Positions 16,710 to 62,282 of a stretch of DNA of 64,000 nt are shown piece by piece (within the stretch, counting starts at the first letter, position 1; each line of letters opens with the position of its first letter). The DNA is from Candidatus Magasanikiibacteriota bacterium (lineage in GTDB: Bacteria; Patescibacteriota; Patescibacteriia; Magasanikbacterales; GWA2-37-8). The notes under the pieces are model-generated. The model made no database searches. It saw nothing but the letters and a program-made list of their open reading frames with translations, and had not been told where the DNA came from. Both the position numbers and the translations under genes were made by a program. The stretch is from contig JAPLWQ010000001.1 in NCBI GenBank assembly GCA_026396515.1, positions 564-64,563 on the forward strand, given 5' to 3'.

Positions 16710-16882
16710 CTGTTTATTCTGTCGCTCGCCGAATCGGATATTTGTTCAGACACGGGTCTCCTCGCCAGCGGGCTCGTCGCCCTAACGCTCACTCCGGCTA
16801 TGATGCCGTCGCTCCGCGGTTGTCTTCAACAAAAATCCGATTCGCCTCGCTATCCCATTTATTTCCCTCACCCATTTCGATT

Positions 16883-17972: not shown

Positions 17973-18003
17973 TACAATTTTTTGGTACTTATTTTCGAAA
18001 TAT

Positions 18004-19296: not shown

Positions 19297-19326
19297 ATGC
19301 CGCAAGATTTGTTTAATTATAAAAAA

Positions 19327-19372
19327 TTCCGCCATTAGTCGGCGGGATTTTTTTGTTAAAAAAAGGCCGCGC
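19327..19372. terminator. pair of bidirectional terminator hairpins between asnS and ORF 19420
   Basis: ccgcc..ggcgggattttttt and ggccgcgct..agcgcgacc. Confidence 0.5.
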
Positions 19373-19419
19373 TAGGTGAGCGCGACCGTGAGAAAAGATC
19401 GTAGTTGGTCATTGAATTT

Positions 19420-20055: not shown

Positions 20056-20153
20056 TGTATTTCCTTTCTCGTTTTCCGCACTAATTGCGGTTGGTTTGTA
20101 ATGAACGTACTTGATAGAAAATCTTAGCAAATTATAGGTGTATTGTCAACACC

Positions 20154-21119: not shown

Positions 21120-21170
21120 AGTGACGATATTTTACTACAGGCAGGCCATTATTTCAATATAAAATGAAAA

Positions 21171-27913: not shown

Positions 27914-27985
27914 AAGCGAAAGCAGGTGAGTAGAATGTCCGTAGAAGGCGGATATTTCCGAGCAGAGGAGTTCATATATGATCTT
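27914..27985 (-). promoter_or_regulatory. conserved 5'-leader element, copy A (topA)
   Basis: About 70 nt immediately upstream of the topA ATG. About 85% identical to the sequence upstream of the dprA ATG (29149-29220). Contains an imperfect hairpin. Confidence 0.5.
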
Positions 27986-28028
27986 TCGGCCTTTGCCGCA
28001 GGGTCAATATATATGTTTGATGCCCATT

Positions 28029-28058
28029 ATATTAGCCGAGAGGGGAGAATATGTCAAA
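28029..28058 (-). promoter_or_regulatory. sigma70-like promoter for topA (TTGACA-18-TAATAT on the minus strand)
   Basis: Sense strand tttgacatattctcccctctcggctaatataatg, about 110 nt upstream of the topA ATG. Confidence 0.45.
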
Positions 28059-28065
28059 TTTAGCC

Positions 28066-29148
28066 CTATACTTTTATATAACTCGCATTTCCAATTCCCT
28101 TAGCCAGCCCTTTTATTTCCAGCATTGATAATGCAGAGCTTACCTCATTTCCCGGCCTGCCGGAATCCGCCGCAATTCTATCAATGGTTTTCGCTTCAGA
28201 GCTTAAAATTTGATAGATGGCCGACTGGTCGGGCGGCAATTCTGACTGGATTGCTTCGTTAGGCCTTTTTTCAAAAACAATCGCTATATTTAATGTTTCC
28301 AAAACGTCAGATGCTTCGCTTACCAATCGTGCACCTTGTTTAATTAGCCGGTTGTTACCTTCCCCGTTTATTACGCCTATCGGATGTGGTACGGCCAAAA
28401 CTTCTCGGTTATAGTCCAAAGCCATCCGGGCGGTGATAAGCGCACCCGACCCCTCGGGCGCTTCAATAACCAAAGTGCCCAGCGTCAGACCGGCAATAAT
28501 ACGGTTGCGGGCGGGAAATGTATATGGTGTCGGTTTGAAACCAGGAGGATACTCGGAAACAATCGCACCGCCGGAAGCAATGATGCGCTCGGAAAGAGAA
28601 CGGTGGCTGGCCGGATACAAAGTATTGCGGTCAATGCCGCCGCCAAGCACGGCGACAGTTATGCCGCCAACTTTCAGTGTTTCTTCGTGAGCTAAACCGT
28701 CAAGCCCAAGAGCGAGACCGCTCACAATAATCATGCCGGACTTAGCGAGGGGTGGTACAATCGCCGCGCAGGCGGCTGCGCCATATGGTGAAATTCTTCG
28801 CGTGCCTACCACACCCAGCGACGGACAACTTTCATCTGGCAGTGTTCCGCGCACAAAAATAGTATATGGCGGGTCGGAAATTTGTTTGAGCAGTACAGGG
28901 TAGGCCGGCTCGTCAATCGACACAGGCCAAATGCCTTCCTGCTCCAGAATAACAGCGGCTTTTTCGGCGGGGAAATTTTCGCGCCAGCTGACAAATTCAT
29001 GAGCCACGCCATCTTCCCAGCCGGCTTGGACCAAATCGCTGAATTCAGCTGCTCCAATTTGTGAATAGTCGGAAAAATAATCCGCCAGTTGTTTCAACCG
29101 GCGGTTAGTTATTTTTGGGAAGAAAGAGAAATTAACCAGTGGGTTCAT
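28066..29148 (-). CDS. dprA: DNA processing protein DprA (Smf)
   Basis: Rossmann-like DprA core GVVGTRRISPYG...LGLDG. Start taken at ATG 29148 because the region upstream matches the noncoding topA leader. The ORF track extends to 29256 with a TTG start. Confidence 0.8.
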   Translation of the reverse strand: MNPLVNFSFFPKITNRRLKQLADYFSDYSQIGAAEFSDLVQAGWEDGVAHEFVSWRENFPAEKAAVILEQEGIWPVSIDEPAYPVLLKQISDPPYTIFVRGTLPDESCPSLGVVGTRRISPYGAAACAAIVPPLAKSGMIIVSGLALGLDGLAHEETLKVGGITVAVLGGGIDRNTLYPASHRSLSERIIASGGAIVSEYPPGFKPTPYTFPARNRIIAGLTLGTLVIEAPEGSGALITARMALDYNREVLAVPHPIGVINGEGNNRLIKQGARLVSEASDVLETLNIAIVFEKRPNEAIQSELPPDQSAIYQILSSEAKTIDRIAADSGRPGNEVSSALSMLEIKGLAKGIGNASYIKV

Positions 29149-29220
29149 AAGCGAACGCAGGTGAGCGAAATATCCGCTAACGGCGGATATTTCCGAGCCA
29201 AGGAGGTAATATATGCCGCA
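29149..29220 (-). promoter_or_regulatory. conserved 5'-leader element, copy B (dprA), with 12-bp perfect hairpin
   Basis: cggaaatatccgc/gcggatatttcg inverted repeat. Paralogous to 27914-27985. Confidence 0.5.
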
Positions 29221-29294
29221 GCACGATTCCACGGCAGCCTCATAGATTAAATTCAATAATTTTTTTTACTGTGCGGATCCGGTTGTGTAGGTAT

Positions 29295-34593: not shown

Positions 34594-36420
34594 ATGAAAA
34601 CACTGTCCGGTTTCGCCGCCATGTTTGCAGCCATGTTCTTCGCGGGCAACTTGCTCGCGGCCGAAGGCGGGAACGCCGCGGCCGGCAACTTGCCCTTCGA
34701 TCTCGGGGGGCTCTTCATTCCGGTCATCGTCGTGGTCTGCGTGCTCGCTATCCTCATCGCCCTCTCGCTCTTCCTGCGGAATTACATCAAGGTTCCGCCG
34801 AACCAGGTGGCGGTCATCTCTGGACGGAAACACAGGCTCGACACCGGCGAGGCAATCGGGTTCAGACTCGTCCGCGGCGGCGCCACCTTCAAGTGGCCAT
34901 TGCTCGAACGGGTCGACTATCTCGATCTCGGAGTGCTGAGCATCCCGGTGCAGATCAAGAAGGCAATCACCAAAGAAGGTGTGCCGCTCAACGTGGCCGC
35001 CATTGCCAACGTCAAGTTCGGTAGCGACGATGTGTCGCTGCGCAACGGCGCTGAGCGGTTCCTGGGTATGAGCCCGGGAGCGATGCGGGAAATCATTCTC
35101 AATACGCTCGAGGGGCATTTGCGTTCGATCTGCTGCACCCTGAAGGTGGAGGAGATCAACAGTGATCGCCAGAAGTTCGCCCAACAGATGGTGAGCGAAG
35201 CGGCGGTCGACTTGGGGCGTTTGGGCTTCGTAATTGATGCCCTGGTCGTCCAGCACATCGAGGACGAGCAGCAATACCTCAACTCCCTCGGCCTCAAGCG
35301 TACGGCCGAGGTCAAACGTGACGCGAAGATCGGCGAAGCCGAAGCGACGCGCGACGCGGACATCAGGACGGCGGAAGCGACGCGCACCGCAACGATTGAA
35401 TCGACCAACGCCCAGCGCGAAGGCGCGGTGGCCAAGAACGAAAACCTGGCCAAGATCGCCGCGGCCGAGCGCGACCTCAAGACGAAGGAGGCGGGATTCG
35501 CCGCCGAAGTCGCTCAAGCCGAAGCCACGCGCGACCAAGCCGGTCCCAAGGCCAAGGCCTTGGCCGAGAAGGATGTGCTCGTCGCCCAGGTCGCGGCCCA
35601 AGAGGCCAAGGCCTTGGCGGAAATCTCTCTCCAGCAGAAGCTGGCCGAGCGCAAGAAGGCCGAGCTCAACGCCACGGTGATCCAGGGTGCTGAAGCCGAA
35701 AAGCAGAAGCAGGTCATCGAGGCGGAAGCCGCGGCCGCGGCCGCGGTGAAGCGGGCAGAAGGCGCGCGCGACGCCGCGGTCAGGACGGCCGAGGGTCAGC
35801 GCGATGTCGCCATCCGCGAAGGCGAAGGCGAGGCCTCCAAGACCAAGGCGGTTGGCCTGGCAGAAGCTGATGCCAACAAGGCAAAGTTGCTCGCCCAGGC
35901 AGAAGGCGAGGCCGCCAAGGTCCGCCAGATGGGTCTGGCCGAGGGCGAGGCCATCCAGGCCAAGCTGCTGGCCGAGGCCGCCGGCGTGCTCAAGAAGGCC
36001 GAGGCCTATCAGAAGCTCGACGAGGCAGGCAAGTTCATGTTCATCCTCGAGAAGGCCCCGCAGATCATCGAGGCGCTCGGCGACGCTGCCTCCAAGGCCC
36101 TTACCCCGGCGTTCGATGCCGTTGGGCGCGGGCTGGCCAACGTGGACAACATCACCATCGTCGACACCGGGTCGGGGGATGGCAAATCGGCGGTCGGGCG
36201 CTTCGCCAATACCGCCCCCACGATTTTCTTCGAGTTCATGCAGAAGGCGAAGGCCCTGGGGATCGACCCGACCGATCTGCTCAAGAAGGTCGGTGTCAAG
36301 GTGATCCCCGGTTCGGCAGCGTTCGGCGCTCTCGACACCGGAGGACAGGACGAGGCGGCATCACCCGCCGCAGACGCCGCCGCCGGCAAGCCGCCGGCTG
36401 ACGCGCCGGCCAAGAAGTAG
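34594..36420 (+). CDS. floT: flotillin (FloT/YuaG-type SPFH/Band-7 protein); GC-rich
   Basis: aaaaaggagaaaacag SD. N-terminal TM. SPFH domain with the LEGHLRSI motif. Long EA-repeat coiled coil. C-terminal ITIVDTGSGDG. Collinear with B. subtilis FloT. Confidence 0.88.
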   Translation: MKTLSGFAAMFAAMFFAGNLLAAEGGNAAAGNLPFDLGGLFIPVIVVVCVLAILIALSLFLRNYIKVPPNQVAVISGRKHRLDTGEAIGFRLVRGGATFKWPLLERVDYLDLGVLSIPVQIKKAITKEGVPLNVAAIANVKFGSDDVSLRNGAERFLGMSPGAMREIILNTLEGHLRSICCTLKVEEINSDRQKFAQQMVSEAAVDLGRLGFVIDALVVQHIEDEQQYLNSLGLKRTAEVKRDAKIGEAEATRDADIRTAEATRTATIESTNAQREGAVAKNENLAKIAAAERDLKTKEAGFAAEVAQAEATRDQAGPKAKALAEKDVLVAQVAAQEAKALAEISLQQKLAERKKAELNATVIQGAEAEKQKQVIEAEAAAAAAVKRAEGARDAAVRTAEGQRDVAIREGEGEASKTKAVGLAEADANKAKLLAQAEGEAAKVRQMGLAEGEAIQAKLLAEAAGVLKKAEAYQKLDEAGKFMFILEKAPQIIEALGDAASKALTPAFDAVGRGLANVDNITIVDTGSGDGKSAVGRFANTAPTIFFEFMQKAKALGIDPTDLLKKVGVKVIPGSAAFGALDTGGQDEAASPAADAAAGKPPADAPAKK

Positions 36421-37027: not shown

Positions 37028-39139
37028 ATGATACAAACAAGAACTATGGATTTTTCTACACCAATAATAAAACTTAATCGCGTCGGAGCAACACTTGCCC
37101 GGCGTTTTGGGCGTTTAGGCGTGAAAACCGCCGGTGATTTGTTAAACTGGTTTCCTTTCCGATACGAAGATTATCGCCGCATCATACCTATCGGGAAAAT
37201 AGTTGAGGGAGAAGCCATTACCGTTTGCGGTCGGTTGGAACTTATCGCCAACAGGCGCAGTTTTCGCAGCAGAAAAATAATTACTACTGCCATGGTTTCC
37301 GATGAAAGCGGCAGTGTGCGCGTGGTTTGGTTTAATCAGCCGTATATCACTAAAAATTTGAAGCCGGGCGACATGATTTTTTTATCCGGCAAGGTTAAGG
37401 CGGATATGCTTGGCCCGCAGTTTGTCAGCCCGATGTACGAAAGAATGAATAACGCAGAGACAACGCATACGGCGCGGATGGTACCGATATATCCCTTAAC
37501 CGACGGCATTACTCAAAAGCAAATACGTTTCTTGATGTCCCAAGTAATGCCCCTGGCGCAATCTGCCGATGATTGGCTGCCTGATGAGATTTTGGAGCGG
37601 TTTGACCTTGCTCCGCTTAAGGATGCCTTGCAGGGAATTCATTTACCAAAAGATGAAATTGATTTAAAACAATGCACCGACCGGTTAAAATTCAATGAAT
37701 TATTCGTTCTTCAATTTAAAGCCGAATTAGCGCGCCGGGAAATGAGCTCAACCAAGGCCCCGGCCATGGAATTTAAGGAGGACGCTATCAAAAAATTCGT
37801 TGCCGGTTTGCCGTTTAAACTGACCAAGGGGCAGAAAGTAGCGGCTTGGGAAATTTTGAAAGATCTGCAAAATAATGCGCCGATGAATCGCTTGTTGTCG
37901 GGCGACGTTGGCTCCGGGAAAACGGTTATCGCGGCAATCGCCATATTAAATACGGTTTTAAATGGTTATCAGGCGATACTGATGGCGCCGACAGAAATTT
38001 TGGCGCGGCAGCACTTTGAATCATTTAAGAAATTATTTGGCGGGAAAATACAAATTGGGCTTCAGACCAGGTCACAGATATTTGTCGGAGAAGAAGAATT
38101 AACAAAGAAAAAAATGGCTCAATTTATCAGTCGGGGGGAAGTAAAAATAATTATCGGAACGCACGCCTTGCTTTCAGAGAAAATATTATTTAGCGATGTA
38201 GGCTTAATAGTTGTGGATGAACAGCATCGTTTTGGCGTGGCCCAAAGAAAAGCGATTAAAGATAAAACCGACGACGTGTCTGCCCATTATTTAAGCATGA
38301 CCGCCACACCGATTCCCCGGTCGCTCGCTTTAATGATTTACGGAGATTTGGATTTATCGGCGATAAATGAAATGCCGGCGGGACGCAAGCCGATTATTAC
38401 CAGATTGGTTGAGCCGAAAAATAGGGAAAAGGCGTATGAATTTATTTGTGGTCAGGTGAAGCAGGGGAGGCAAATATTTGTAATTTGTCCGCTGATAGAA
38501 CAGGCGCCAACTGAAGATTTTATACCGATAAATTATGATTTTACTTGGGCGGGTCAAAGCGACAAAAAAACCGTCATGAATGAATTCACGAAGTTATCTG
38601 AAGAAATTTTTCCAGATTTTTTGGTGGGATATTTGCACGGCAAACTTAAGCCCGCGGAAAAAGAGGCGACAATGAAAAAATTTCAAAATAATGAAATAAA
38701 TATTCTTGTTTCTACTTCTGTTGTGGAAGTTGGAATCGATATCCCCAACGCGTCTGTGATGATGATTGAAGGAGCGGACCGTTTCGGTTTGGCACAGCTT
38801 CATCAGTTTCGCGGACGCGTCGGCCGGTCGGTTTATCAATCATATTGTTTTTTATTTACCGGTTCTGAATCGGAAAAAGTTAAAGATCGGCTGACTTTTT
38901 TTGAACAAAATCTAAATGGTTTTAATTTGGCGGAAAAGGATCTGGAAACGCGTGGCCCCGGAGAAGTATATGGAACCGCCCAAAGCGGGCTCGCTAACTT
39001 AAGGTTGGCTAAGCTAACGGATAAAGAGGTAATTGTGAAGACAAGAAGCGCGGCTGTATTCGTGGCTCAAAATCTAAAAAAATTCCCTAAAATTAGGCAT
39101 TTCATTGCCAAATGGGAGAAGGGCGTGCATTTAGAGTAA
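37028..39139 (+). CDS. recG: ATP-dependent DNA helicase RecG
   Basis: Wedge/OB N-terminus, DEAD-box helicase motifs (GDVGSGKT, DEQH), C-terminal domain. The first ATG overlaps a TATAAT box, so an alternative start at 37046 is possible. Confidence 0.9.
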   Translation: MIQTRTMDFSTPIIKLNRVGATLARRFGRLGVKTAGDLLNWFPFRYEDYRRIIPIGKIVEGEAITVCGRLELIANRRSFRSRKIITTAMVSDESGSVRVVWFNQPYITKNLKPGDMIFLSGKVKADMLGPQFVSPMYERMNNAETTHTARMVPIYPLTDGITQKQIRFLMSQVMPLAQSADDWLPDEILERFDLAPLKDALQGIHLPKDEIDLKQCTDRLKFNELFVLQFKAELARREMSSTKAPAMEFKEDAIKKFVAGLPFKLTKGQKVAAWEILKDLQNNAPMNRLLSGDVGSGKTVIAAIAILNTVLNGYQAILMAPTEILARQHFESFKKLFGGKIQIGLQTRSQIFVGEEELTKKKMAQFISRGEVKIIIGTHALLSEKILFSDVGLIVVDEQHRFGVAQRKAIKDKTDDVSAHYLSMTATPIPRSLALMIYGDLDLSAINEMPAGRKPIITRLVEPKNREKAYEFICGQVKQGRQIFVICPLIEQAPTEDFIPINYDFTWAGQSDKKTVMNEFTKLSEEIFPDFLVGYLHGKLKPAEKEATMKKFQNNEINILVSTSVVEVGIDIPNASVMMIEGADRFGLAQLHQFRGRVGRSVYQSYCFLFTGSESEKVKDRLTFFEQNLNGFNLAEKDLETRGPGEVYGTAQSGLANLRLAKLTDKEVIVKTRSAAVFVAQNLKKFPKIRHFIAKWEKGVHLE

Positions 39140-39247
39140 AAAAGTATTGACTTTTTGGCTGAGTCATGCTATTCTCTCGTCATGTTTTTACCGTCTGTGC
39201 GGATGTTCCGCGCCGGTAGAACAGGGCTTTCATCAAGGAGAAGAGGC

Positions 39248-39652
39248 ATGAAAAACAGATTGGAAGAGGGAACGGCCAAGGGCTCCAAAGAGGGGGACAA
39301 GGATTTCGTCAAGGTATTCGTACAGCGGGCGGGGAAGACCGGTTTCGAACCGTTTTTCTCGCGTCGTACGCCGCTGCGTCTCAACGGCCACACGGTGACG
39401 GTGTTCGGTAGGACCGAGCGGGGCGCGTCCGACAGGAACGTGGAGGCCTGCGAGGTCATTTTCCGGAAGATCGATGATCTGGAGCAGATTTACGACTGCG
39501 ACGCCAGCATCACCTGTTCGCGGATGAGGGTGCAGGAGAAGGTTCCTGACATCGGGCGCGTACGCCGCCATATCGCGACGAAGATCTCCGAGCACCCCTG
39601 CATCAAGGTCGACGAGAAGAAGTTCATCGAGGTCTTGAGCCACCGCGTTTAG
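39248..39652 (+). CDS. hypothetical protein (134 aa), GC-rich singleton
   Basis: aaggagaagagg SD plus ATG at 39248. High GC relative to recG and radA. The ORF-track start at 39155 is TTG. Confidence 0.5.
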   Translation: MKNRLEEGTAKGSKEGDKDFVKVFVQRAGKTGFEPFFSRRTPLRLNGHTVTVFGRTERGASDRNVEACEVIFRKIDDLEQIYDCDASITCSRMRVQEKVPDIGRVRRHIATKISEHPCIKVDEKKFIEVLSHRV

Positions 39653-39682
39653 CGCTGCCAACATGCTTATTCTTCTTTGATT

Positions 39683-39722
39683 GAAAAAGCCGCCAAGGAT
39701 TTATTCCAAGGCGGCTTTATTT
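39683..39722. terminator. bidirectional terminator between ORF 39248 and radA
   Basis: aaaaagccgccaagg...ccaaggcggctttattttttt. Confidence 0.6.
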
Positions 39723-39737
39723 TTTTACTCTGATAGT

Positions 39738-41093
39738 TTAAGTGTGCTTAATAATTTCCTGAATATTTTTTATATCCACTATTTTAAGTATTTTCATTGT
39801 TAAACCGGCGCTCTTTTTTCCTAAATTGGTCAGGGCGCGCTTTAGCCCAAGCTGTTCGCATTCTTTAAGGCGTTTTTCAGTAAATGAAACAGGCCGTACT
39901 TCGCCCGATAATCCGATTTCTCCGAAAGCGGCCATATCAGAACCAAGCGGCTTATCTTTATACGCGCTGGCTATGGCTAGTGCCGCGGCGAGGTCAGCTG
40001 CCGGTTCATCGGCGGAAAGACCGCCAACCACATTTAAGTGAATATCATATTGGCTGAGTGTTAATCCGGCACGGCGTTCAAGCACGGCTACTAGCATGTG
40101 CAGGCGATTGAGGTCAAAGCCGCTTGATTTGCGCACCGGATAGCCAAAAGATGTTTTACTCACCAGTGCCTGCACTTCGCAGAGGATGGGGCGCGATCCT
40201 TCCATTAAACAAGCTACTACATTGCCTGGAGCGTTTTCCGCCCGTTCACCCAAAAAAGCGGCTGATGGATTTTTTACTTCCTGTAAGCCGTTTTCCTCCA
40301 TGGAAAAAACTCCGACTTCATCGGTTGAACCAAAACGGTTTTTGGCGGCGCGTAGTATTCTGAATTGATGAAAGCGGTCGCCCTCTAAATATAAGACAGT
40401 ATCAACCAAATGCTCTAAAGTTTTTGGTCCGGCGACAGTTCCTTCCTTGGTCACTTGCCCGATGAGTACAACTGTTAAGCGCTCGCTTTTCGCCAGATCC
40501 ATCAGTTTCACTGTGCAGGCGCGCACTTGCGCCAGATTTCCGGCTTCACCTATGGAGTCGGCAGAATAAACTGTTTGAATCGAATCGACAATCGTCAGAG
40601 CAGGCCGCTCTTTTTTTATGGTTGCGATAATTATATCAATATTTGATTCATTGCCGATTTTAAGTTTCTGCGCTTTAATGCTTAGTCTGTCGGCGCGCAA
40701 CTTGGTTTGTTCAGCCGATTCTTCGCCGGAGAGATAAAGGGCGGTTGGTAAAAAAGAAGCGAGTTGTAACGCCAGCGTTGATTTGCCGATACCCGGTTCA
40801 CCACCAAGTAAAATTAAACTTCCCGGTACAAGCCCGCCGCCAAGCACGCGGTCCAGTTCTCCGATATTCGTTTTCACCCGTGCGAAATCTTCGCTTTTAA
40901 TATCTGAAAGTGTGGAAATTTTCGCCGGCGCAAGTTCTTGAGCATCATCATTTTTTACAGACACCGTTGTCGGATTTTTATCAATCGTGCCCCATTGTCC
41001 GCATTCTAAACAGCGCCCAACCCATTTTTGGAATTGCGCGCCGCAGTGAGAGCAGGAATAAACAATATTTTGTCTGATATTTATTGAGCGCAT
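39738..41093 (-). CDS. radA: DNA repair protein RadA (Sms)
   Basis: N-terminal C4 zinc ribbon. RecA-like GGEPGIGKST Walker A. Lon-like C-terminus. Confidence 0.93.
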   Translation of the reverse strand: MRSINIRQNIVYSCSHCGAQFQKWVGRCLECGQWGTIDKNPTTVSVKNDDAQELAPAKISTLSDIKSEDFARVKTNIGELDRVLGGGLVPGSLILLGGEPGIGKSTLALQLASFLPTALYLSGEESAEQTKLRADRLSIKAQKLKIGNESNIDIIIATIKKERPALTIVDSIQTVYSADSIGEAGNLAQVRACTVKLMDLAKSERLTVVLIGQVTKEGTVAGPKTLEHLVDTVLYLEGDRFHQFRILRAAKNRFGSTDEVGVFSMEENGLQEVKNPSAAFLGERAENAPGNVVACLMEGSRPILCEVQALVSKTSFGYPVRKSSGFDLNRLHMLVAVLERRAGLTLSQYDIHLNVVGGLSADEPAADLAAALAIASAYKDKPLGSDMAAFGEIGLSGEVRPVSFTEKRLKECEQLGLKRALTNLGKKSAGLTMKILKIVDIKNIQEIIKHT

Positions 41094-42667
41094 TTTTTTA
41101 TCGAGTTCAAGTAGGTTTTAATATATGTCTCACCGCCAGCGACAGCAGCACATCCTTGTCCATCACGGGTGCCCCCTTGACAAAAACCAATTCTGCCTTT
41201 TGGAGAAAATGCCGGTTGTTCGCAAGCCCCAGTCGCCGATTTACAGCATAAAGGCGCTGTTTTTTCACTATTTGGAGGACAATCAAACCCTCTTTTTTGA
41301 TTTGCGAGCGGCCAAGTTACCGGTGGAATGCATGATTGTTTCAATATATCCTCCGCACTGGTGGTTTTAAGCATTGTTAACAGTGCATTTTCGTCAAAAC
41401 TTTTCGGTTGACAACCCGTACGGCTGACATAGCTTTTCCAACTCGCCAGACCCATGCCATAGACAGCGGCCCCAGCAACGGGATTGGCGGCGCCCTTCAA
41501 TGCGTTTTTTTTAATCATGGCGGCCAATATTAAGTTGCCTTCTGCGTCGGAGTTTAACCAAGAGATATAGACACCGTCCGAATCGCCTGATTTTGGACAT
41601 AAAGGGCATCCCTGAGAGTGAATTGACACTATCTCAGCTCTTCTTTTGCTAAGTAAAGTTTTTGCGTTGCTCAACATTATTTGGCCTAGACCATGGCAAC
41701 ACCCCGTGCTATTACTGACTTTCCAATTTGATTCCTTTCCTATCTGCGTGGAAAATAAACAGCCATTAATTCCTAGTTTAAAGGCAACTTCCTGAGCCGT
41801 TTTTTCAAGTGCGGGGTTTGATGAAGCTGATGAGCCTTCATTTTCCAGTCCAATATAATTTTCGTCGAACTCAATAACCTCCTCCTCGATGTAGTGGACT
41901 TGTAAAGATTTGAAAGTAGTTAAATTCGGGTTAATAGTATACATGATGAAGTATGACCCCCAGGCGAGCAGGAGTCCGATTACCGCTTGCGATATTCTTT
42001 TATTTCCGGCCGCTTTTGCCGGCCCGCCGGCCGAAGTAATAATTTGCGCTCCGGCAACGATAATCATGACAACGGCCACAATGCTTAGCGTCACTACTAA
42101 AAAATTGTAAATAGCTTTGATGTATTCAGCCAGCCAGGGAATATATATATTTCCTTCAGCGTCGGCTTCAGTTGGAGGCGGGCTGAATTGTAGGTTGGGG
42201 ATAGATATTCCCAAAACAACGTCTTTGAGTTTTAATTCCTCTTCCAGTTTTGTCATTGTTGGCGCCTTATTACATTCTTCTGGATAACTTGCCCTTGTAC
42301 ATGGTTTCCCGAATTCGCCGTGAGAGTTGCATTCACTTTGATCGCGTATCACTTCGCCATTGGCATTGCGCGGAACTGATTTATTAGCGCCATCGGTGCA
42401 GACGCAGCACCAATTGAGCATTTCGGTATCGATAGGGTTTGTGGTGCAGCCCGGATTATCATGGATACTACACGGTGTTCCCCATGAGCCATGATCTCCG
42501 CATTCCATCATATCGTAAATTTGCTGTCCACTTGCACCCACAGGGATAGTGGCACTATCGCCGCTACCGCAAACACAACACACTGCGGCTCGTGTTGCTG
42601 CCGGTGCAAAAAAAACGGTTGCAAATAATATTGTTGAAATTGTTAAAAATTTTCGGAGTCTGGTCAT
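41081..42667 (-). CDS. secreted cysteine-rich protein with tandem CCxC modules, two-TM hairpin and SLT (lytic transglycosylase)-like motif
   Basis: Signal peptide. Two repeats of CCVC..x20..EC..HG..G.PC. Hydrophobic hairpin LVVTLSIVAVVMIIVAGAQIITSAGG. KESNWKVSNSTGCCHGLGQIM resembles the ES...GLMQ family-1 LT motif. About 26 Cys. Overlaps the radA start by 13 nt. Confidence 0.55.
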   Translation of the reverse strand: MTRLRKFLTISTILFATVFFAPAATRAAVCCVCGSGDSATIPVGASGQQIYDMMECGDHGSWGTPCSIHDNPGCTTNPIDTEMLNWCCVCTDGANKSVPRNANGEVIRDQSECNSHGEFGKPCTRASYPEECNKAPTMTKLEEELKLKDVVLGISIPNLQFSPPPTEADAEGNIYIPWLAEYIKAIYNFLVVTLSIVAVVMIIVAGAQIITSAGGPAKAAGNKRISQAVIGLLLAWGSYFIMYTINPNLTTFKSLQVHYIEEEVIEFDENYIGLENEGSSASSNPALEKTAQEVAFKLGINGCLFSTQIGKESNWKVSNSTGCCHGLGQIMLSNAKTLLSKRRAEIVSIHSQGCPLCPKSGDSDGVYISWLNSDAEGNLILAAMIKKNALKGAANPVAGAAVYGMGLASWKSYVSRTGCQPKSFDENALLTMLKTTSAEDILKQSCIPPVTWPLANQKRGFDCPPNSEKTAPLCCKSATGACEQPAFSPKGRIGFCQGGTRDGQGCAAVAGGETYIKTYLNSIKKCAQ

Positions 42668-42669
42668 AG

Positions 42670-43341
42670 CTAATATTTCTTTATCAGCTCGGTGAGAAAA
42701 GCATCAATATCAACCTCTGTTAAATAATTTACTTTCCGGTTATTAACAAAAATTTCCGGCGCTTTTTTCAGCCCAAGAGCTTCAGCTAAAGACACGGCTG
42801 ATTCAATGCGAGCTTTTGCCTCTGATGAATCCAAACAGATTTTTAAAGTTGTTGTGTTGAGTTTCACCACTTCCGCGACAGCCAGTAGCGTTTTCTCCTC
42901 GTTGAACCCTTTTCTGTATTTCATCAACTCATTCAGATATGGCCAAAATTTCTTACTATCTTGTTTTTGCGCGCAAAAAGCGGCATAGTGCGGCCGGTAA
43001 TTACTTGATGAAAAAAACCCTTTGTCAGGATAATCCTTGAATATCAGGCGAATTTCAGTGGGGTGTTCTTCAATAAATTTTGCCAATTTTTGATGCGCTT
43101 GCCGGCTTTCAGTTGAATTAATATCGACAAATTCTACGATGGTCATAGGCGCCCCCTGATTTCCAAGCAGGGGATCATTTATATCCAGCGGAATCATTAC
43201 CGAAGTTGGTTCAATAAGCGGCCGCTCGCTTTTTTCCACAGATACTTTATTAAATATGGAGAGCTGGCGCGCCAACATCAGGGCTGTAATAACCACAGCG
43301 ACAATCAGCAAAATTATAAATTTTTTGAATCCCGAAGTCAT
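42670..43341 (-). CDS. membrane-anchored DsbA/BdbD-like thioredoxin-fold protein with CxxC replaced by SxxS (predicted redox-inactive)
   Basis: GNQGAPMTIVEFVDINSTES aligns with G.ADAPVTVVEFGDYKCPSC of BdbD. The cis-Pro loop KAPEIFVNN is retained. Confidence 0.6.
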   Translation of the reverse strand: MTSGFKKFIILLIVAVVITALMLARQLSIFNKVSVEKSERPLIEPTSVMIPLDINDPLLGNQGAPMTIVEFVDINSTESRQAHQKLAKFIEEHPTEIRLIFKDYPDKGFFSSSNYRPHYAAFCAQKQDSKKFWPYLNELMKYRKGFNEEKTLLAVAEVVKLNTTTLKICLDSSEAKARIESAVSLAEALGLKKAPEIFVNNRKVNYLTEVDIDAFLTELIKKY

Positions 43342-43343
43342 AA

Positions 43344-44615
43344 TTATAGTTTTACTTCGAAAACGCCGCTTTGCGACGGGTCGGTAAATAATAAGCGGTT
43401 ATTCGTGTCGTCAACAGATAAATTATTGATTGAATAATCACCGCCGGTACTAATCGTAGTTTTCAAGCCGGTTATTAAATCAATTTTATACAGATCGTCG
43501 GTTGTACCGGCTGCTATTCCCGGTTTGATGCCGGCGCCTTGCGGCAGAGTGCGAGGTACGGCGCAGTACATTGTTGAATCGCCGCTGAAAGTGCATTTTT
43601 CCGCCCAGGTGGCCAGACCAAGGTTCTGCCGTCCGGATCCGATTTCCTGGCCGTATGAATTTACCACCCAAAGCTCGGGTTTGAAGTCACTTCGGTCGCT
43701 ATAAACACTGTAAGCCAATTTTTTTCCGGTCGGTGACCATTTTGGTTCAAAGCCTAGACCCTCCACGATTGTAGATTTAAAATTTTCACCATTCAAGCCG
43801 ACAAAGAATATTTCTTTGCGGTACATTCCTATACCGCGGGCGGTCAGGGCGAAAGCTACCGCCTGCTTGCTGGGCGACCAGTCGACAATTACTTTGTCCT
43901 GGTTTTCTCCCATTGGTTCAACTAATTTGGTGCCGGAACCGTCATCGTTTATTGTGACCAACCATCTGTTTTCCGGAGACAACCCCACCGCTTTGGCAGC
44001 CACTTCTTTGCTGTCCGCAGAAAAAGAAAAATCCTCCCAGTGCTTTGGTATGGTAACCTGTTTTTGAGTTTCAAAGTTATATATTATTTTTGAACCGTCA
44101 GGATATTCCAATACCGCCTTGTCCGCGCTGTTCGCCCAGGTCGTTTTGCTGACATTATAAAACGCTTGATCACTTAATGTTTTAACGGTTCCGTCAGGTA
44201 ATATGCGATAAAATTTTCCGTCTGTCGCGTCATAATAGCGATAGTTGCCGTTTTGGGCGAGTGATGGGTAAGTGGTAACAGTGTTGGTAATTTTTGTAAC
44301 CGCTTCGGTACGGTAATAACTCGGTTGTACGCCGGGAATATATCCGGCTACCGGTAAAGTGGTAGTGACTTCTCCGCTCGGAAGAGTGGTAGTGACACGA
44401 CCGCCGGAAGGCGGCAGCCCGCCCGGTACGGTTGGCGTGGCAGTTGGTGTAGGCAGAATTCCGGCCAGCGGCCCGGCTTTTTTAAATAAGTAGTATAGCG
44501 CGAAGGCAAGAAGCGCTGTCACGGCCAGAAGCGCGACAACGAGCAATATCCTTTTTGTTCTATCAGACATATTAAGATAAGCGTTTTTAATATTTAAAAG
44601 ATGTTTTTGCGCCAA
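43344..44615 (-). CDS. membrane-anchored PD40/TolB-like beta-propeller protein
   Basis: N-terminal TM, Pro/Thr-rich linker, repeated WSP..K..A(F/Y) PD40-like motifs. Confidence 0.55.
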   Translation of the reverse strand: MAQKHLLNIKNAYLNMSDRTKRILLVVALLAVTALLAFALYYLFKKAGPLAGILPTPTATPTVPGGLPPSGGRVTTTLPSGEVTTTLPVAGYIPGVQPSYYRTEAVTKITNTVTTYPSLAQNGNYRYYDATDGKFYRILPDGTVKTLSDQAFYNVSKTTWANSADKAVLEYPDGSKIIYNFETQKQVTIPKHWEDFSFSADSKEVAAKAVGLSPENRWLVTINDDGSGTKLVEPMGENQDKVIVDWSPSKQAVAFALTARGIGMYRKEIFFVGLNGENFKSTIVEGLGFEPKWSPTGKKLAYSVYSDRSDFKPELWVVNSYGQEIGSGRQNLGLATWAEKCTFSGDSTMYCAVPRTLPQGAGIKPGIAAGTTDDLYKIDLITGLKTTISTGGDYSINNLSVDDTNNRLLFTDPSQSGVFEVKL

Positions 44616-45408
44616 GATTTGATAATTGGTTAATTTGACGATTTATTCTCAGGAGCTGTTGGCGTAACGGTCTGGCACGTTGATCGCGTTGTTTTTCCAG
44701 GGTTTTGCGGAGTGTTTTCAATTTATTTTCTAAAGACTGTGTTTTCAGTGACGGGGCCCCCATACTGATTCCGGCAAGCCATAATAGTCCGATCGTCATA
44801 ATGCCGAGTATGGAAAGAAGCGGTAAAACTATAGTGTACCAAAGAGCAAAACCCCCAGCACAGATTCTTATCCATTTTACGGCATTTTTAGTCCGGTCGG
44901 TTGCCTTTGAAATAAAAATCTGTTTATTTATTGGAGAAAGTCCTTTTTCCACTTCTTTTTGCAACCCTTGCATTTGGCGATTAATTTTTAAACTGGCTGT
45001 TCGCAGCTCATTAATTTTCGGTTGGCCCGCCCGTGCGCGCTGCTCTAAACCGCCGGCCATCTGTTCCTGGGCCATCATGGCTTGCTCTTCTTCGCTACCT
45101 TCTTCTTCTCCGCCTTCTTCGCCCTCCCTTCCACCCCTTTCTTCCGCACCCTCTTCGCCTTCTTCGGCCTGCTCTTCCTCTGTTGGTTTTTCCGGCAATT
45201 CGCCGATTTCCGGATGTTCCATACCGGCGAATTCAGTTGCCGGACCGACATCTTGCTTCGCCAGATAGTCGGGTTCTTTTTTTGCTCTTTTTTCTATTGC
45301 CCTGCGTCTTTGCAATTCAGTGGCACGTCTTTCAAGGTCGGTGGGCTCGTCGTCATAAGGCGACCTGGCATTAGAATCAATAGTATCTTGTGGCGCTGGA
45401 TTGGCCAT
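44587..45408 (-). CDS. hypothetical membrane protein with Glu/Gly-rich acidic low-complexity region
   Basis: EEGEEGAEERGGREGEEGGEEEGSEEE tract. Two TM helices. First gene of a four- to five-gene minus-strand operon ending in radA. Confidence 0.5.
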   Translation of the reverse strand: MANPAPQDTIDSNARSPYDDEPTDLERRATELQRRRAIEKRAKKEPDYLAKQDVGPATEFAGMEHPEIGELPEKPTEEEQAEEGEEGAEERGGREGEEGGEEEGSEEEQAMMAQEQMAGGLEQRARAGQPKINELRTASLKINRQMQGLQKEVEKGLSPINKQIFISKATDRTKNAVKWIRICAGGFALWYTIVLPLLSILGIMTIGLLWLAGISMGAPSLKTQSLENKLKTLRKTLEKQRDQRARPLRQQLLRINRQINQLSNLGAKTSFKY

Positions 45409-45412
45409 AGAT

Positions 45413-47941
45413 TTATTTCAGATTAATGGTGGATCCGAATTCGGCGATTAGTGCGTAAGATTTTTTTGGCTTGCTTTTTAAAATTATGTCCGCCATTATT
45501 TTTTCCACCTCGGCCCGTATTTTTTGCCGGATATCTCGGGCATTGATATTTTTTTCTTCCAGTCCTTTTATTAGTTCATGCATAGTTACTCCATCAGCGG
45601 AAATTTTTGTTTGGTATTTTTTAAGCTGACGGTTTAACGAATCGATTTCTAAAAACGCAATTTTCGCCAAATCATTTATTGACAGTTCATTAAATACACA
45701 GACGCAGTCAAGACGGTTTATCAGTTCGGGGGAGAATCGTTCTTTGAGTTTTTCCCGTATCTTTGTACGGCTTTCTTTTGCCATTAGATTGCCCGGCGTG
45801 AAACCAAACGCGCCTTTTTTCAGCTCATCGGCGCCGTAGGATGTGGTTAATATTATTATAGCATGTTTTAGGGATATTTTCTTGCCTGTTGAGTCGGTAA
45901 TGCGCCCCTCTTCCAGTATTTGCAGGAGCAATTTCAATATGTCCGGATGCGCCTTATCTATTTCGTCAAAAAGTACCACAGAATATGGCTGGAGTTTGAG
46001 CCGGTCGGTGAATTGGTTGGCCTCCTTATAACCTATATATCCGGCCGGAGAACCGAGCAATTTTGACGCGCCGTATGATTCGCTGAATTCCGACATGTCC
46101 AGCCGGATTAAAGCATCTTGTCCCGGGTAAAGCGCTTCAGAGAGTGATTTACCCAGTTCCGTTTTTCCCACGCCCGAAGATCCGACAAATAGAAAAGAGG
46201 CGATCGGCTTGTCCGGGCTGGAAAGACCGAGTTCGGCACGCCGGATTAATCCGACCACCTGATCAATGGTTTCATCCTGGCCGATAATTCTCTGCCCGAG
46301 TTCTTTGGAGAGTTTAATAAATTTTTGGCCGCTGTTAGAGGTCAATTCCGAGGGCTCCACGCCGGTCATTTTCGCGACCTGCGCCAGAACATCGTGAGCG
46401 GTTACAACACCGAGGATTGCGATGCCCTTTTTACTTACAGTTTTTTCCATTTTTTCAATTTCCACAGCCAGCTGCGCTTCTCTTTCTTTAAGTTTTAAGG
46501 CCTCGTCAAACCGGTCGTCAAAGGCCGCGGTTTCCTTGTTGGCACGGACTTTTTTTAACTCGTCGCGGAGTGCAAAAAGCGTTTCTTCATCAGGAGAATT
46601 TCTTACTGAAAGTCTTTTTGCAGCTGCGGTTTCGTCGATTAAATCAATCGCCTTATCCGGCAAAAATTTTCCTGAAACATACCGGGCGGATAATGTTACA
46701 GCCGCGTCGGCGGCCTTGTCTTCAATTTTCACCTGGTGGAACGATTCAAAATTTTTCTTTATGCCTCTCAATATTTTTTCCGCCTCGGCAATATTCGGTT
46801 CGCGCACTATAATCGGCATAAATCGCCGTTCCAGCGCCGCGTCGCTTTCAAAAAATTTCTTGTACTCCGCCGGCGTAGTGGAGCCGATGCAGTGAATTTG
46901 TCCGCGGGCAAGAGCCGGTTTTAGCAGATTGGCCGCGTCCATTGAGCCCTGCGATGAGCCGGCACCGACAATATTGTGAATTTCGTCAATGAAAAGAATT
47001 ATTTCCGAATCGGCAACCGCCTCGTCAATTAAATCTTTCAGGCGCGACTCAAATTCTCCGCGGTAAATTGTGCCGGCTACTAGCAGCCCCAGATCCACTG
47101 AATATATTTTTTTTCGGCGCAGTTTGTCCGGTACGGCTCCCTCGATAATTTTTTTTGCCAGTCCTTCAACAATTGCTGTTTTTCCCACGCCCGGATCGCC
47201 AAGGAGAATCGGATTATTTTTTGTTCTGCGCGACAATATTTGTATCAGACGTTCAACTTCCTGTTCGCGCCCGACCAGCGGATCAATATTTTTTTGGTTG
47301 TCAGGGTCGGTGAGATTGACGGCAAAATATTCCAGCGCCGAATCGGAGTTTTTCTCATTTTTTCGCTTGCTTTTACGCGGTTTCCGCACCGGCTGTGCCG
47401 TTGATGGTCCTAATAGATTTTCCTGAATGTGTTCGGCTGCCTCGGCCACATCGTCTAGGCCGGGGAATTGTGAAGCGTTGGCGAGTATTGAATCAATTTC
47501 TTTAGTGATGGCCTCAATTTTTAAATTACTCACCTTAAAAAACTCTTTCAATTTAATATCGTCCAAATCTAAAAGTGCGGCGAGCAGGTGCTCGGAACCG
47601 AGATAATTATGTCCGTTTTTTTGCGCCACAATCAGCGCTTTTTCCAAGGCGATTTTTGACAGCGCGGAAAGAGGAGGAATTTGTGCAGAAGCAATTGATT
47701 TGTCCAATAAAATTTTTTCCGCTCCCGGTTCTGTCGGCACGGCAAATATCATCTGCTCTAAAATTTTTACGTCCGGTTTAGCATGGCTGATAATTTCTGC
47801 CGCCACTGAACCCTTTTCATTAATTAGAGCGAACAGCAAATGTAGCGGTTCAATTTCACGGTGTTTTAATTCCGAGGCGATTTGCATCGCCTTAGCTAAA
47901 ATTTCTTTTAAGTGAGTGGAAAATCGGTCAAGAATGTCCAT
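45413..47941 (-). CDS. clpC: Clp ATPase (ClpC/ClpB family AAA+ chaperone, two NBDs, double Clp_N)
   Basis: Two Clp_N repeats. Walker A GDPGVGKTAIVEGLA and GSSGVGKTELGK. ATG at 47941. Confidence 0.85.
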   Translation of the reverse strand: MDILDRFSTHLKEILAKAMQIASELKHREIEPLHLLFALINEKGSVAAEIISHAKPDVKILEQMIFAVPTEPGAEKILLDKSIASAQIPPLSALSKIALEKALIVAQKNGHNYLGSEHLLAALLDLDDIKLKEFFKVSNLKIEAITKEIDSILANASQFPGLDDVAEAAEHIQENLLGPSTAQPVRKPRKSKRKNEKNSDSALEYFAVNLTDPDNQKNIDPLVGREQEVERLIQILSRRTKNNPILLGDPGVGKTAIVEGLAKKIIEGAVPDKLRRKKIYSVDLGLLVAGTIYRGEFESRLKDLIDEAVADSEIILFIDEIHNIVGAGSSQGSMDAANLLKPALARGQIHCIGSTTPAEYKKFFESDAALERRFMPIIVREPNIAEAEKILRGIKKNFESFHQVKIEDKAADAAVTLSARYVSGKFLPDKAIDLIDETAAAKRLSVRNSPDEETLFALRDELKKVRANKETAAFDDRFDEALKLKEREAQLAVEIEKMEKTVSKKGIAILGVVTAHDVLAQVAKMTGVEPSELTSNSGQKFIKLSKELGQRIIGQDETIDQVVGLIRRAELGLSSPDKPIASFLFVGSSGVGKTELGKSLSEALYPGQDALIRLDMSEFSESYGASKLLGSPAGYIGYKEANQFTDRLKLQPYSVVLFDEIDKAHPDILKLLLQILEEGRITDSTGKKISLKHAIIILTTSYGADELKKGAFGFTPGNLMAKESRTKIREKLKERFSPELINRLDCVCVFNELSINDLAKIAFLEIDSLNRQLKKYQTKISADGVTMHELIKGLEEKNINARDIRQKIRAEVEKIMADIILKSKPKKSYALIAEFGSTINLK

Positions 47942-48015
47942 ATTTATTTGATAATTATTTGCGGCTATTATATAATGAATAACACTTGAAGTCAAAGCTA
48001 ATTTTTCTCTAAACT

Positions 48016-61700: not shown

Positions 61701-62277
61701 TTTGAATGAACTTTCGCATAAAGGGCGCGGCGAATGGGTAGTGGTCGGCGGTGTGATAGACAGCGCCAAGAAAAAAATTACCCGCAAGGGAGACACTATG
61801 ATGTTTGTCACTATTCAGGATTTGAGCGGGTCTTTGGAATTATTGGTTTTTCCACGAACCTATGAAACAACAAAAGATGTATGGGTGGAGGGGCGGATGG
61901 CTTGCGTGGTGGGTAGAACTTCGGAAGAAGAGGGTGACGACAAGTTGTTTGTGGAAAAAGCGTTTGATTTAAATGAAAACAATGCGCCGATGATTGCCGT
62001 ACAGATGGATATGGGGGCGCATCATGAACATTCGCCAAAATATGAGGGTGAACCAAACCAATATCCGGAATCCGGCCTGCTTATAACGCTTTCATCCGCG
62101 GAAGTGAAAGAAAAAGCCGATGCTGTAAAAGCGGTTTTAGCGCGTCATCCCGGTGACAAGGTGGTGTATTTGTCTGTAGGCGGAAAGCGGGTAAAGACAT
62201 CATATAAGGTTTCAATGCCGCCGGAATTGCTTATTGAATTGGAGGCATTAGTAGGGAAGGGTAGGTTGAAATACTAA
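58789..62277 (+). CDS. dnaE: DNA polymerase III alpha subunit
   Basis: PHP domain HLHVHSHYSLLDG, polymerase core, OB fold. 1162 aa. Confidence 0.95.
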   Translation: MSNFVHLHVHSHYSLLDGLPKIDELVKAAKKRGFSALALTDHGNMYGAIEFYEQCLKQEIKPIIGMEAYVAPGSRSEKNGPDNKYYHLVLLALDYNGYKNLMKLSSLAHLEGFYYKPRVDKELLRELHEGLVATSACMGGEIARAIVKENNYEKAKAVALEYQDIFGPGNFYLELMDLPALEGQADLNNTLLQLSKDTGIPAIVSRDVHYLNTEDAEAQDILTCIRDGTTIDQPNRMTSAGIDCSMATGEEIAKRFKHAPEVLENTVKIAERVDLKIELNKWHFPPIELPQGKTADEYLREQVYEHLPKLIEMTDEVKKRADYELETITKKGYSPYFIAVADYVGYAREHGIIETTRGSAAGSIVSYAMGIVSVNPLFFKLPFERFLNPFRPSPPDIDADFADDRRDEMIAYVTQKYGADKVAQIITFGTMMARGAVRDVGRALGYAYSFCDQVAKLMTAGAQGFQVTIATAMEKEEDLKKMYNENPQVHRLLDLAQKIEGCARHTSIHAAGVVIAPSALTDFTPVQRETGGDRIVTQYEMHAVEAAGVLKMDFLGIRNLSILGHAVEIIEKTTGTKIDITKLPWNDKKTYDMLAHGDTVGVFQLSGSGMTRYLKELKPASIFDIMAMVALFRPGPMEVIPEYINRRHHPELIEYLDPRMKDYLDQSLGLIVYQDDVLLTAINLAGYNWEEADKFRKAMGKKIPEEMMKQQDKFFKGCREVGKLPEAKINTLWERIKPFAAYGFNKAHAASYAVVAYQTAYLKANYPIQYMTAILIAESGDIDKVPPVIHECEKMGLKVLPPEVNESFKNFAMVGWEEGKEAHIRFGLNGIKNLGEHIAETIYRERKNNGTYQDLEDFLRRVQDKDLNKKSLESLVKCGAMDSFGYDRGVLLANTDNLLAFSKTVHENSAAKQDSLFSGTQIDFTQKVRINPAQPATQEEKILWEKELLGLYVTAHPFAPLEKILRRVITPLNELSHKGRGEWVVVGGVIDSAKKKITRKGDTMMFVTIQDLSGSLELLVFPRTYETTKDVWVEGRMACVVGRTSEEEGDDKLFVEKAFDLNENNAPMIAVQMDMGAHHEHSPKYEGEPNQYPESGLLITLSSAEVKEKADAVKAVLARHPGDKVVYLSVGGKRVKTSYKVSMPPELLIELEALVGKGRLKY

Positions 62278-62282
62278 ACGAT

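Follow-up and report, generated by a model that had tools for sequence, protein, structure and literature searches.

A radA-adjacent VirB2-like pilin scaffold in Magasanikbacteria carrying a predicted peptidoglycan hydrolase and apparently exchangeable cassettes

VirB2-like pilins are widespread in the Patescibacteria, often in divergent arrays, and a recognisable VirB1 is mostly missing (PMC12102498). The type IV secretion system (T4SS) loci of ABY1 lie near comF, recG, and radA, for which functional coordination has been suggested (PMC12102498). In Southlakia epibionticum the pilin array is essential (PMC10633639). The T4SS of Southlakia has neither a coupling protein nor a relaxase (PMC10633639, PMC12857230), and its comEC-dependent competence is separable from T4SS essentiality (PMC12857230). 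The DNA analysed here, referred to as the window, is a 64,000 nt stretch of a Candidatus Magasanikiibacteriota bacterium (assembly GCA_026396515.1, contig JAPLWQ010000001.1, positions 564 to 64,563). In it, a gene for a 528 aa protein (41081–42667, minus strand) overlaps radA/sms; a 100% identical protein from a Candidatus Magasanikbacteria metagenome-assembled genome (MAG) is named 'pilin' by NCBI, and this identity places the window in class ABY1 of the Patescibacteria. This protein has a VirB2-like hairpin fused to a predicted peptidoglycan hydrolase, and in related genomes the sequences on both sides of the hairpin appear to be exchanged as cassettes. The fusion of this scaffold to peptidoglycan hydrolases, with cassette exchange, is the novel element, set on the known patescibacterial VirB2-like pilins. 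Neither the fusion nor the cassette behaviour was described in the literature searched.

The hairpin of the 528 aa protein belongs to PF18895 (T4SS_pilin), the VirB2-like family. It forms a conserved scaffold (41921–42271, minus strand) made up of a linker of aa 133–176, with an invariant I156-P157 in an IPNL motif, and the hairpin itself at aa 177–249. Most members of the family (23 out of 29) match PF18895, the best at 1.3e-8. A profile of the linker and hairpin retrieves 117 proteins at E≤1e-5, about 80% of which have a precomputed PF18895 match; the search returned only proteins of 100–222 aa and therefore does not provide a census of fused architectures. In the AlphaFold2 (AF2) model the helices span residues 177–211 and 216–245, with a predicted local distance difference test score (pLDDT) of 84–91. 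The loop is short and basic (GGPAKAAGNKR) and the hairpin ends at an invariant N246-P247 in an NPNL motif. The pilin-like character that an earlier note on this DNA had read from the letters alone is therefore upheld by the family matches and the modelled hairpin.

Shared with the patescibacterial VirB2-like pilins are a signal peptide (read from the sequence), the two-helix hydrophobic hairpin with its short basic loop, the occurrence of divergent tandem arrays and, as in ABY1, co-location with recG and radA. Typical members of PF18895 are 100–220 aa and consist of the hairpin alone, whereas the window protein is 528 aa and its relatives range from approximately 390 to more than 900 aa. In the window protein around 150 aa of Cys-rich modules precede the hairpin and around 280 aa, including the hydrolase, follow it. 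The gene also differs from the typical members in not being near virB4 and in having DsbA-like and propeller genes as neighbours.

An acidic spacer of about 33 residues (aa 250–282) separates the hairpin from the enzyme domain (aa 283–450; 41318–41821, minus strand). A GH23/SLT fold of lytic transglycosylase type is supported for this domain by modelling. Sequence searches gave nearly nothing, and the fold assignment therefore came from AF2 and Foldseek. A profile of the domain had no significant match among PDB sequences, and an exhaustive phmmer search of 1.84 billion cluster representatives yielded 14 relatives only, every one with this architecture; PF01464 is matched by 2 out of 13 domain relatives, the best at 5.9e-6. 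The AF2 model from 13 sequences has a pLDDT of 94.2 and a predicted template modelling score of 0.89. The top 50 Foldseek matches in the PDB are all GH23 proteins (lytic transglycosylases, goose-type lysozymes, and a GH23 chitinase), with probability up to 1.0. Those named are Slt70, Slt, MltE, MltF, MltD, and phiKZ gp144, at a root mean square deviation (rmsd) of 2.4–3.0 Å over approximately 120–130 residues and E-values of 0.09–2. Against a viral library the best E-value is 4.6e-3, with an rmsd of 2.1 Å over 128 columns, and the top 50, where named, are essentially all of lytic transglycosylase, endolysin, or lysozyme type, LT_GEWL and PRD1 P7 included.

The motifs of the domain are E312-S313, G326-L-G-Q329, and Y403-G-M-G406. 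Glu312 (E30 of the domain alignment) is invariant in 13 out of 13 sequences and Ser313 is nearly so, while GLGQ and YGMG are conserved in the family alignment. A weak, non-significant profile match (E 1.3) aligns Glu312 with the ES glutamate of the lytic transglycosylase 9vi7_A (IESSF...GLMQI). The resemblance to the family-1 lytic transglycosylases of GH23 (Slt70, MltE, MltF, the phage LT_GEWL endolysins, and PRD1 P7) therefore covers the fold, the ES...GL(M/G)Q...Y-x-x-G pattern, and the single catalytic Glu. The lytic-transglycosylase-like motif seen previously thus gains a modelled fold. Unlike typical GH23 domains, that of the window has seven extra Cys inside its catalytic part, escapes detection by the Pfam SLT model, and is followed by a 78-residue beta-rich, Cys-rich subdomain (aa 451–528, 7 Cys; 41084–41317, minus strand), which is confidently modelled and matches no known fold.

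At the other end, a signal peptide (aa 1–27; 42587–42667, minus strand) can be read from the sequence as MTRLRK, a hydrophobic stretch, and an ATRA/AV cleavage site; AF2 places a helix at residues 2–19. It is followed by two tandem 6-Cys modules, aa 28–74 and 85–132 (42272–42586, minus strand), of the pattern CCVC...EC..HG..PC...C, which form the variable N-terminal cassette. With 42% identity over 43 ungapped residues and a pairwise E-value of 3e-13, the modules are on sequence comparison a genuine duplication, as had been proposed. Foldseek on the full-length model found nothing beyond the lytic transglycosylase matches. The protein contains 26 Cys (4.9%), 14 of them within the last 246 aa, in agreement with the earlier count of about 26 and a Cys-rich C-terminus. 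In 40 other window proteins Cys makes up 0.79% (binomial P approximately 4e-13). The predicted cleaved signal peptide and the positively charged loop mean that both large domains should lie outside the membrane. An extracytoplasmic location would fit the 26 Cys.

The VirB1-type hydrolases PrgK of pCF10, TraG of pIP501, and CwlT of ICEBs1 are, as is predicted here, membrane-anchored extracytoplasmic peptidoglycan hydrolases that make way through the wall for a surface apparatus. As in the VirB1-type enzymes (SLT, CHAP, NlpC/P60, and LytM), the family as a whole uses many catalytic types. Compared by description only, the anchor is a VirB2-like hairpin here and a single N-terminal helix there. 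The present family also differs in that each protein has a single catalytic domain, the content of Cys is very high, and the gene lies within a housekeeping operon.

Variation at both ends of the protein was seen in a radA-anchored scan of GTDB species representatives, which gave 80 loci from Magasanikbacteria and Falkowbacteria-like genomes with radA 52–90% identical. L-numbers are the labels of the compared loci, gene order was taken from local hmmsearch, and order was scored in loci with enough upstream DNA. There are 93 fusion open reading frames (ORFs), with C-terminal extensions of 160–490 aa that fall into at least 20 BLAST clusters. Class identities come from a Pfam scan plus precomputed matches (M15_4, C39_2, and VanY). 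The largest classes are VanY/M15-like (17 members) and canonical SLT (PF01464, 9e-9; 13 members), followed by a P0018-type class of no assigned identity (10), C39_2-like (9), a second SLT-like class (8), and Amidase_2 (1e-19; 7). M15_4 (2e-6) has five members in one cluster and a separate single-member cluster (L028), NlpC/P60 (1e-8) and CHAP (2e-7) have one member each, and several other classes have no assigned identity. Every identifiable C-terminal class is a peptidoglycan hydrolase. The enzyme class of the window occurs once (L083), in 1 of 91 fusions among the species representatives, and the five closest relatives (radA 72–90%) have four different enzyme classes, none of them that of the window.

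The boundaries of this variation are evident in the closest representative, L011, with radA 90% identical at the amino acid level. The DNA of the window and L011 is collinear at 76–81% from pgm through the DsbA-like gene, and again from radA to recG. Within the pilin gene only 41900–42257, the linker and hairpin, can be aligned (80%), and the Cys modules and enzyme domain are unalignable. Proteins with the same SLT and Cys-rich C-terminal domain may have a single CCxC module, two of them, or none, and one type of double CCVC module is found with either C39_2 or M15_4. N-terminal modules and enzyme domains therefore assort independently. From these alignments, the linker and hairpin alone are conserved, and the N-terminal modules and the enzyme domain are exchangeable cassettes. 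Chimeras of assembly or annotation are an unlikely source of this pattern, since 93 independent ORFs show the architecture.

The gene immediately 5' of the fusion (42670–43341, minus strand) encodes a membrane-anchored 223 aa protein of DsbA/Thioredoxin_4 fold (PF13462, 7.4e-16, 59.2 vs. 23.2 bits; PF01323, 4.8e-9), with 3gyk, BdbD, and ScsC-type proteins as PDB relatives. Its active-site position is occupied by STES (nt 43105–43116), where relatives have CPFC or CKKC and DsbA-type proteins in the PDB have CPYC. Elsewhere in the alignment, the cis-Pro P195 is invariant, as are two further Cys. The redox-dead DsbA of the earlier note is confirmed in both fold and substitution, and the window protein cannot carry out disulfide chemistry through the canonical site. 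CxxC is kept in 49 of 64 orthologues and lost in 15, which are the window protein, its clade, and several scattered lineages. The pilin fusions are Cys-rich (median approximately 15 Cys) even where the CxxC is lost. It is probable that the ancestral role of the DsbA-like protein was disulfide formation in the fusions. In the window it may persist as a binding or chaperone partner.

A DsbA-like gene also precedes pilin fusions away from radA, in L009, L010, and L091 of another lineage and in a second pair in L017, making this pairing the most robust functional link of the locus. The second pair of L017 (17428–19656, minus strand) has lost the CxxC (LGDAASK), which is kept at the radA locus of the same genome (FKCPNCQ). 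In L009 (6237–12677) and L091 (6059–11377) a DsbA gene with CPFC heads an array in which pilin-like genes rich in Cys are combined with hydrolase fusions (SLT-like, M15-like, a weak NlpC/P60, and a faint 3D domain). These arrays lie between an Exo_endo_phos gene (PF03372), beyond which is a leuS-type tRNA synthetase gene, and rpoC, with no radA or clpC. A 341 aa gene of L009 considered as a propeller orthologue was rejected, being another pilin-like Cys-rich protein.

The next gene (43344–44570, minus strand) encodes a 408 aa protein anchored in the membrane at its N-terminus, in which a linker rich in Pro and Thr leads to a PD40-type propeller-like domain with two invariant Cys. It is strongly conserved across the relatives (46–88% identity). 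The earlier assignment as a PD40 propeller has moderate support: the window protein is below the cut-off for PF07676 (17.4 bits against 20.9), but 6 out of 6 orthologues match it (best 1.9e-5), along with the WD40, THOC3, and DPPIV_N propeller families. The profile has insignificant matches only in the PDB, and the TolB equivalog TIGR02800 is not reached (17.4 bits against a cut-off of 343).

The remaining envelope gene (44587–45408, minus strand) encodes a 273 aa protein with 12.8% Glu, the highest in the window, which bears out its description as a Glu-rich membrane protein. A long acidic N-terminus and a basic, coiled-coil-like tail lie on either side of a hydrophobic hairpin (aa 180–219). 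From this distribution of charge both ends are probably cytoplasmic (N-in/C-in). In the relatives this slot is hyper-divergent (230–840 aa, acidic, low-complexity, and with no Pfam match), and the gene is always present when clpC is (L011–L090). The slot may encode a protein that links cytoplasmic ClpC to the envelope proteins.

In Bacillus subtilis the clpC operon is ctsR-mcsA-mcsB-clpC-radA-disA. It is described as encoding repair and competence proteins (Kruger 1997, as cited in PMC4786428). The four tightly packed minus-strand genes of the earlier note are all present as ORFs where it had placed them, and the last does overlap radA (39738–41093, minus strand), by 13 nt. It overlooked the clpC-type AAA+ unfoldase gene heading the run (842 aa from an ATG at 47941; 45413–47941, minus strand). 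This gene is 4 nt from the 273 aa gene and belongs to the same tight run, which therefore extends from clpC to radA. The propeller gene overlaps the 273 aa gene by 29 nt if it starts at the TTG at 44615 (423 aa), or is separated from it by 16 nt if it starts at the ATG at 44570 (408 aa), the start chosen by other gene callers. There are 2 nt between the propeller and DsbA-like genes and 2 nt between the DsbA-like gene and the fusion. The window shares with B. subtilis the placement of clpC ahead of radA in a single tight run on the same strand; in the window the genes are separated by 2–16 nt or overlap throughout. The window differs in that four envelope genes sit between the two, and in that ctsR, mcsA, and mcsB are not seen upstream, where there is a divergent pgm, nor disA downstream, where recG (37028–39139, plus strand) is convergent with radA and forms a conserved boundary of the locus among the relatives. 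A promoter-like site, TTGACT-17 nt-TATAAT (47967–47995, minus strand), shortly precedes the clpC ATG, within the spacer that separates the divergent pgm and clpC genes. It was found by consensus scan, matches at 11 of 12 positions, and is the sole near-consensus site suitably placed for the run. Total counts in the promoter and terminator scan were not clearly above shuffled controls, and the site is therefore suggestive only.

The order of the window is near-universal among the relatives: pgm on the opposite strand, clpC, the hyper-variable gene, propeller, DsbA-like gene, one to four pilin fusions, radA, and recG on the opposite strand. Tandem fusions are contiguous, as with the four in L046. 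Seven loci fetched by protein identity have the same neighbourhood. The conservation beside radA on which the earlier note had made its case depend was found in essentially all of the related genomes whose flanking DNA was long enough to show it. Exceptions are a Falkowbacteria-like subgroup without clpC and the DsbA-like gene, and L024 and L078, which have clpC-propeller-DsbA-radA but lack the pilin gene at its usual position. In the latter two dsbA ends at approximately 9990 and radA starts at approximately 9985. Many of the public MAGs with this patescibacterial locus (including L012, L019, L021, L023, and L024) are titled 'uncultured Gammaproteobacteria bacterium', and one such MAG is titled 'Candidatus Udaeobacter sp.'; the taxonomy of these records looks mislabelled.

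In eight loci of a Falkowbacteria-like sister lineage (L074, L076, L077, L082, L084, L087, L089, and L090) a VirB4-like ATPase is encoded 2–9 kb from the module. In L077 the order over 14250–21126 (minus strand) is recG, a 164 aa gene, a ComF-like gene, a 198 aa gene, the VirB4-like gene (P-loop_TraG, 1e-26), a 225 aa gene, PrgI (VirB3-like, 1.4e-9), and a 521 aa gene. The genes of this T4SS block share a strand, and the block, which ends in recG, converges on that of propeller, pilin, and radA; the other seven loci are similar.

With about an even chance of being correct, the 528 aa protein is interpreted here as a pilin-scaffolded, disulfide-stabilised, wall-breaching enzyme of a T4SS-related surface apparatus, whose cassettes are exchanged as the wall that is met varies, this plausibly being the wall of the host. 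The region as a whole is taken to be a chromosomal envelope module conserved within the clpC-to-radA run. The 528 aa protein would be exported by Sec and held in the cytoplasmic membrane by its VirB2-type hairpin with both ends outside. The N-terminal end would present a pair of small disulfide-knotted modules, and the C-terminal GH23-like domain would cut the glycan strands of peptidoglycan through Glu312. The DsbA-fold protein and the membrane-anchored propeller would be its extracytoplasmic partners. The former would ancestrally be a CxxC oxidase for the Cys-rich fusions and, with SxxS in this clade, at most a binding or chaperone subunit. The N-terminal modules and enzyme domains would be replaced by recombination. 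It appears that any peptidoglycan bond specificity serves (glycosidase, amidase, DD-, LD-, or DL-peptidase), which points to local breaching of a wall at the surface or at a cell-cell interface as the job, and a VirB1-like function would thereby be fused directly to a VirB2-like scaffold. Diversification of the cassettes suggests that the wall met often belongs to a different cell. What the analysis demonstrates is the order and synteny of the genes, the domains and the fold, the conserved motifs, and the limits of the cassettes. We infer that the enzyme is active, how the protein is oriented in the membrane, that the DsbA-like and propeller proteins are its partners, that the run is co-transcribed, and which wall is the target.

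Several observations weigh against this interpretation. Alone, the 528 aa protein is sub-threshold for PF18895 (E 0.0044, 17.5 bits, cut-off 26.6). Its C-terminal domain has no Pfam match at E≤10 and no NCBIfam match, and the Foldseek E-values for the SLT fold are weak (0.005–0.1 at best). AF2 modelling of the Cys modules, a check suggested in the earlier note, was of low confidence, with a pLDDT of only 33–71 in the full-length model. No T4SS genes were found within the 64 kb window. With a spacer of some 33 residues, an enzyme that is neither released nor polymerised as part of a pilus could act on no wall but that of its own cell, and we know of no experimental support for PF18895 proteins forming pili. 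Elsewhere, in housekeeping settings, the same hairpin anchors domains of unrelated kinds, and it may therefore be a generic membrane anchor that serves various surface domains across the Patescibacteria. One such case is L092 (2290–4224), in which a gene lying between ruvA and a Mur ligase gene encodes a PF18895 hairpin joined to a Calx-beta domain and a long region rich in Pro and Cys.

Some of these same points would be expected of a self-directed autolysin, the main rival reading, in which the hairpin is a mere anchor and the fusions are hydrolases for the cell's own growth or division, or 'space-makers', controlled by the propeller and DsbA-like proteins and co-expressed with housekeeping genes. 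This is possible, though rather unlikely. It would account for the short tether between hairpin and enzyme, the strictly housekeeping chromosomal context, the use of the same hairpin for non-hydrolase domains elsewhere, and the lack of immunity genes seen beside the fusions. Reduced genomes need some autolysin, and one to four copies with differing bond specificities resemble the autolysin sets of monoderms. However, even among close relatives (radA 79–90%) the single-copy slot is occupied by unrelated enzyme classes, and the N-terminal modules are likewise replaced, the borders being sharp. Such variation is unusual for housekeeping autolysins, whose substrate is the cell's own and stable. 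Two genomes have no such gene at the locus, and in the sister lineage the module is beside virB4, prgI, and comF.

A more elaborate form of the wall-breaching interpretation is unlikely. It holds that the hairpin is a true pilin core, with the fusions located in or at the tip of a T4SS-related pilus as wall-breaching 'drill bits'. The exchangeable Cys-knot modules would then recognise the host surface, the exchangeable hydrolases would break through the wall of that host, and the radA-side cassette locus would be a determinant of host range in episymbiotic Patescibacteria and the 'missing VirB1' of their T4SS in fused form.

The earlier note had proposed a module for wall breaching, DNA uptake, or episymbiont attachment from the presumed co-transcription with radA. 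The wall-breaching part is well supported; the functional inference from radA is weak. For DNA uptake the module would open the wall for ComB-like, T4SS-related import, co-regulated with RadA processing of the incoming DNA. Consistent with this, the 13 nt overlap joins two genes whose adjacency is conserved in approximately 70 species, dprA is 12 kb from the fusion gene in the window, comF is beside virB4 and recG in the sister lineage, and T4SS loci are co-located with comF, recG, and radA in ABY1 (PMC12102498). However, clpC-radA is the classical Gram-positive operon arrangement and its linkage predates the module, the DsbA and pilin-hydrolase unit occurs without radA, and radA keeps its place where the pilin gene is absent (L024 and L078). 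The adjacency is therefore best read as mainly inherited order, from clpC-radA and from the T4SS-comF-recG-radA neighbourhood of ABY1, and not as evidence of joint work with RadA. The functional inference is further weakened because the slot does not conserve SLT as its enzyme. A scan of the window ORFs of 150 aa or longer detected no comEC, comEA, or type IV pilus gene. In Southlakia, competence can be separated from the essential role of the T4SS (PMC12857230), and polymorphism of the enzyme domain is not expected of a DNA port in the cell's own wall. DNA uptake is therefore considered improbable.

Least likely of all is a classical polymorphic toxin directed at competing bacteria, with a conserved N-terminal delivery domain and exchangeable peptidoglycan-degrading toxins: the conserved N-terminal part, the C-terminal enzymes of at least 20 classes, the tandem arrays, and the sharp recombination junctions do recall the Rhs, CDI, and LXG toxins and the peptidoglycan effectors of type VI secretion systems. 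It is down-weighted because cognate immunity ORFs are absent, each fusion being directly adjacent to another or to radA. In addition, the Pfam scans show no LXG, Rhs, PT-TG, or similar delivery domains, all of the identified enzyme domains act on peptidoglycan, and the protein is predicted to be membrane-anchored, not secreted.

The rest of the window is housekeeping in content, with tuf, a ribosomal protein cluster, secY, adk, map, ruvX, recO, parAB, relA, topA, dprA, der, dnaE, fpg, tsaD, recG, and pgm. There are also genes for an LCP protein and a flotillin, and M48/LemA/M50 and pheST genes, the names of which were taken from the gene tables of related loci. No second pilin hairpin was found elsewhere in the window. 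Genes for recombination, repair, and replication are unusually concentrated at 16742–17972, 25700–29256, 37028–41093, and 58789–63095 (ruvX, recO, topA, dprA, recG, radA, dnaE, and fpg). With this many 'DNA' genes present, an envelope gene adjoining one of them carries little information. The flotillin-like gene (34594–36420, plus strand) encodes a 608 aa SPFH/Band7 protein and has a GC content of approximately 0.62, against approximately 0.45 for the genome. It has a long, Ala/Glu-rich, repetitive coiled-coil, with imperfect tandem repeats (35320–35385 and 35820–35920) and long antisense ORFs that are spurious. The gene may have a foreign origin, or amino acid composition may account for the GC skew. 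The left end of the window is richer in GC (0.515 over 1–2000) and includes a Glu-rich (10.9%) ORF of 412 aa with no Pfam match (781–2019, plus strand).

How ultrasmall Patescibacteria contact and exploit their hosts is a central question. In the one species tested, the T4SS and its VirB2-like pilins proved essential, although no substrate is known for this system and a recognisable VirB1 is usually absent. Across the whole order, the radA-adjacent 'pilin' is a pilin-scaffolded predicted peptidoglycan hydrolase with recombining cassettes at both ends and with DsbA-like and propeller proteins as its putative dedicated partners. The locus also serves as a caution that function should not be read from the adjacency to radA and recG noted in the literature. 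At least 20 enzyme classes on one scaffold, together with the repeated loss of CxxC from the DsbA-like protein, provide a natural experiment in how surface enzymes are built and controlled. The genes of the locus can be tested as candidates both for the breaching of the wall and for the choice of host.

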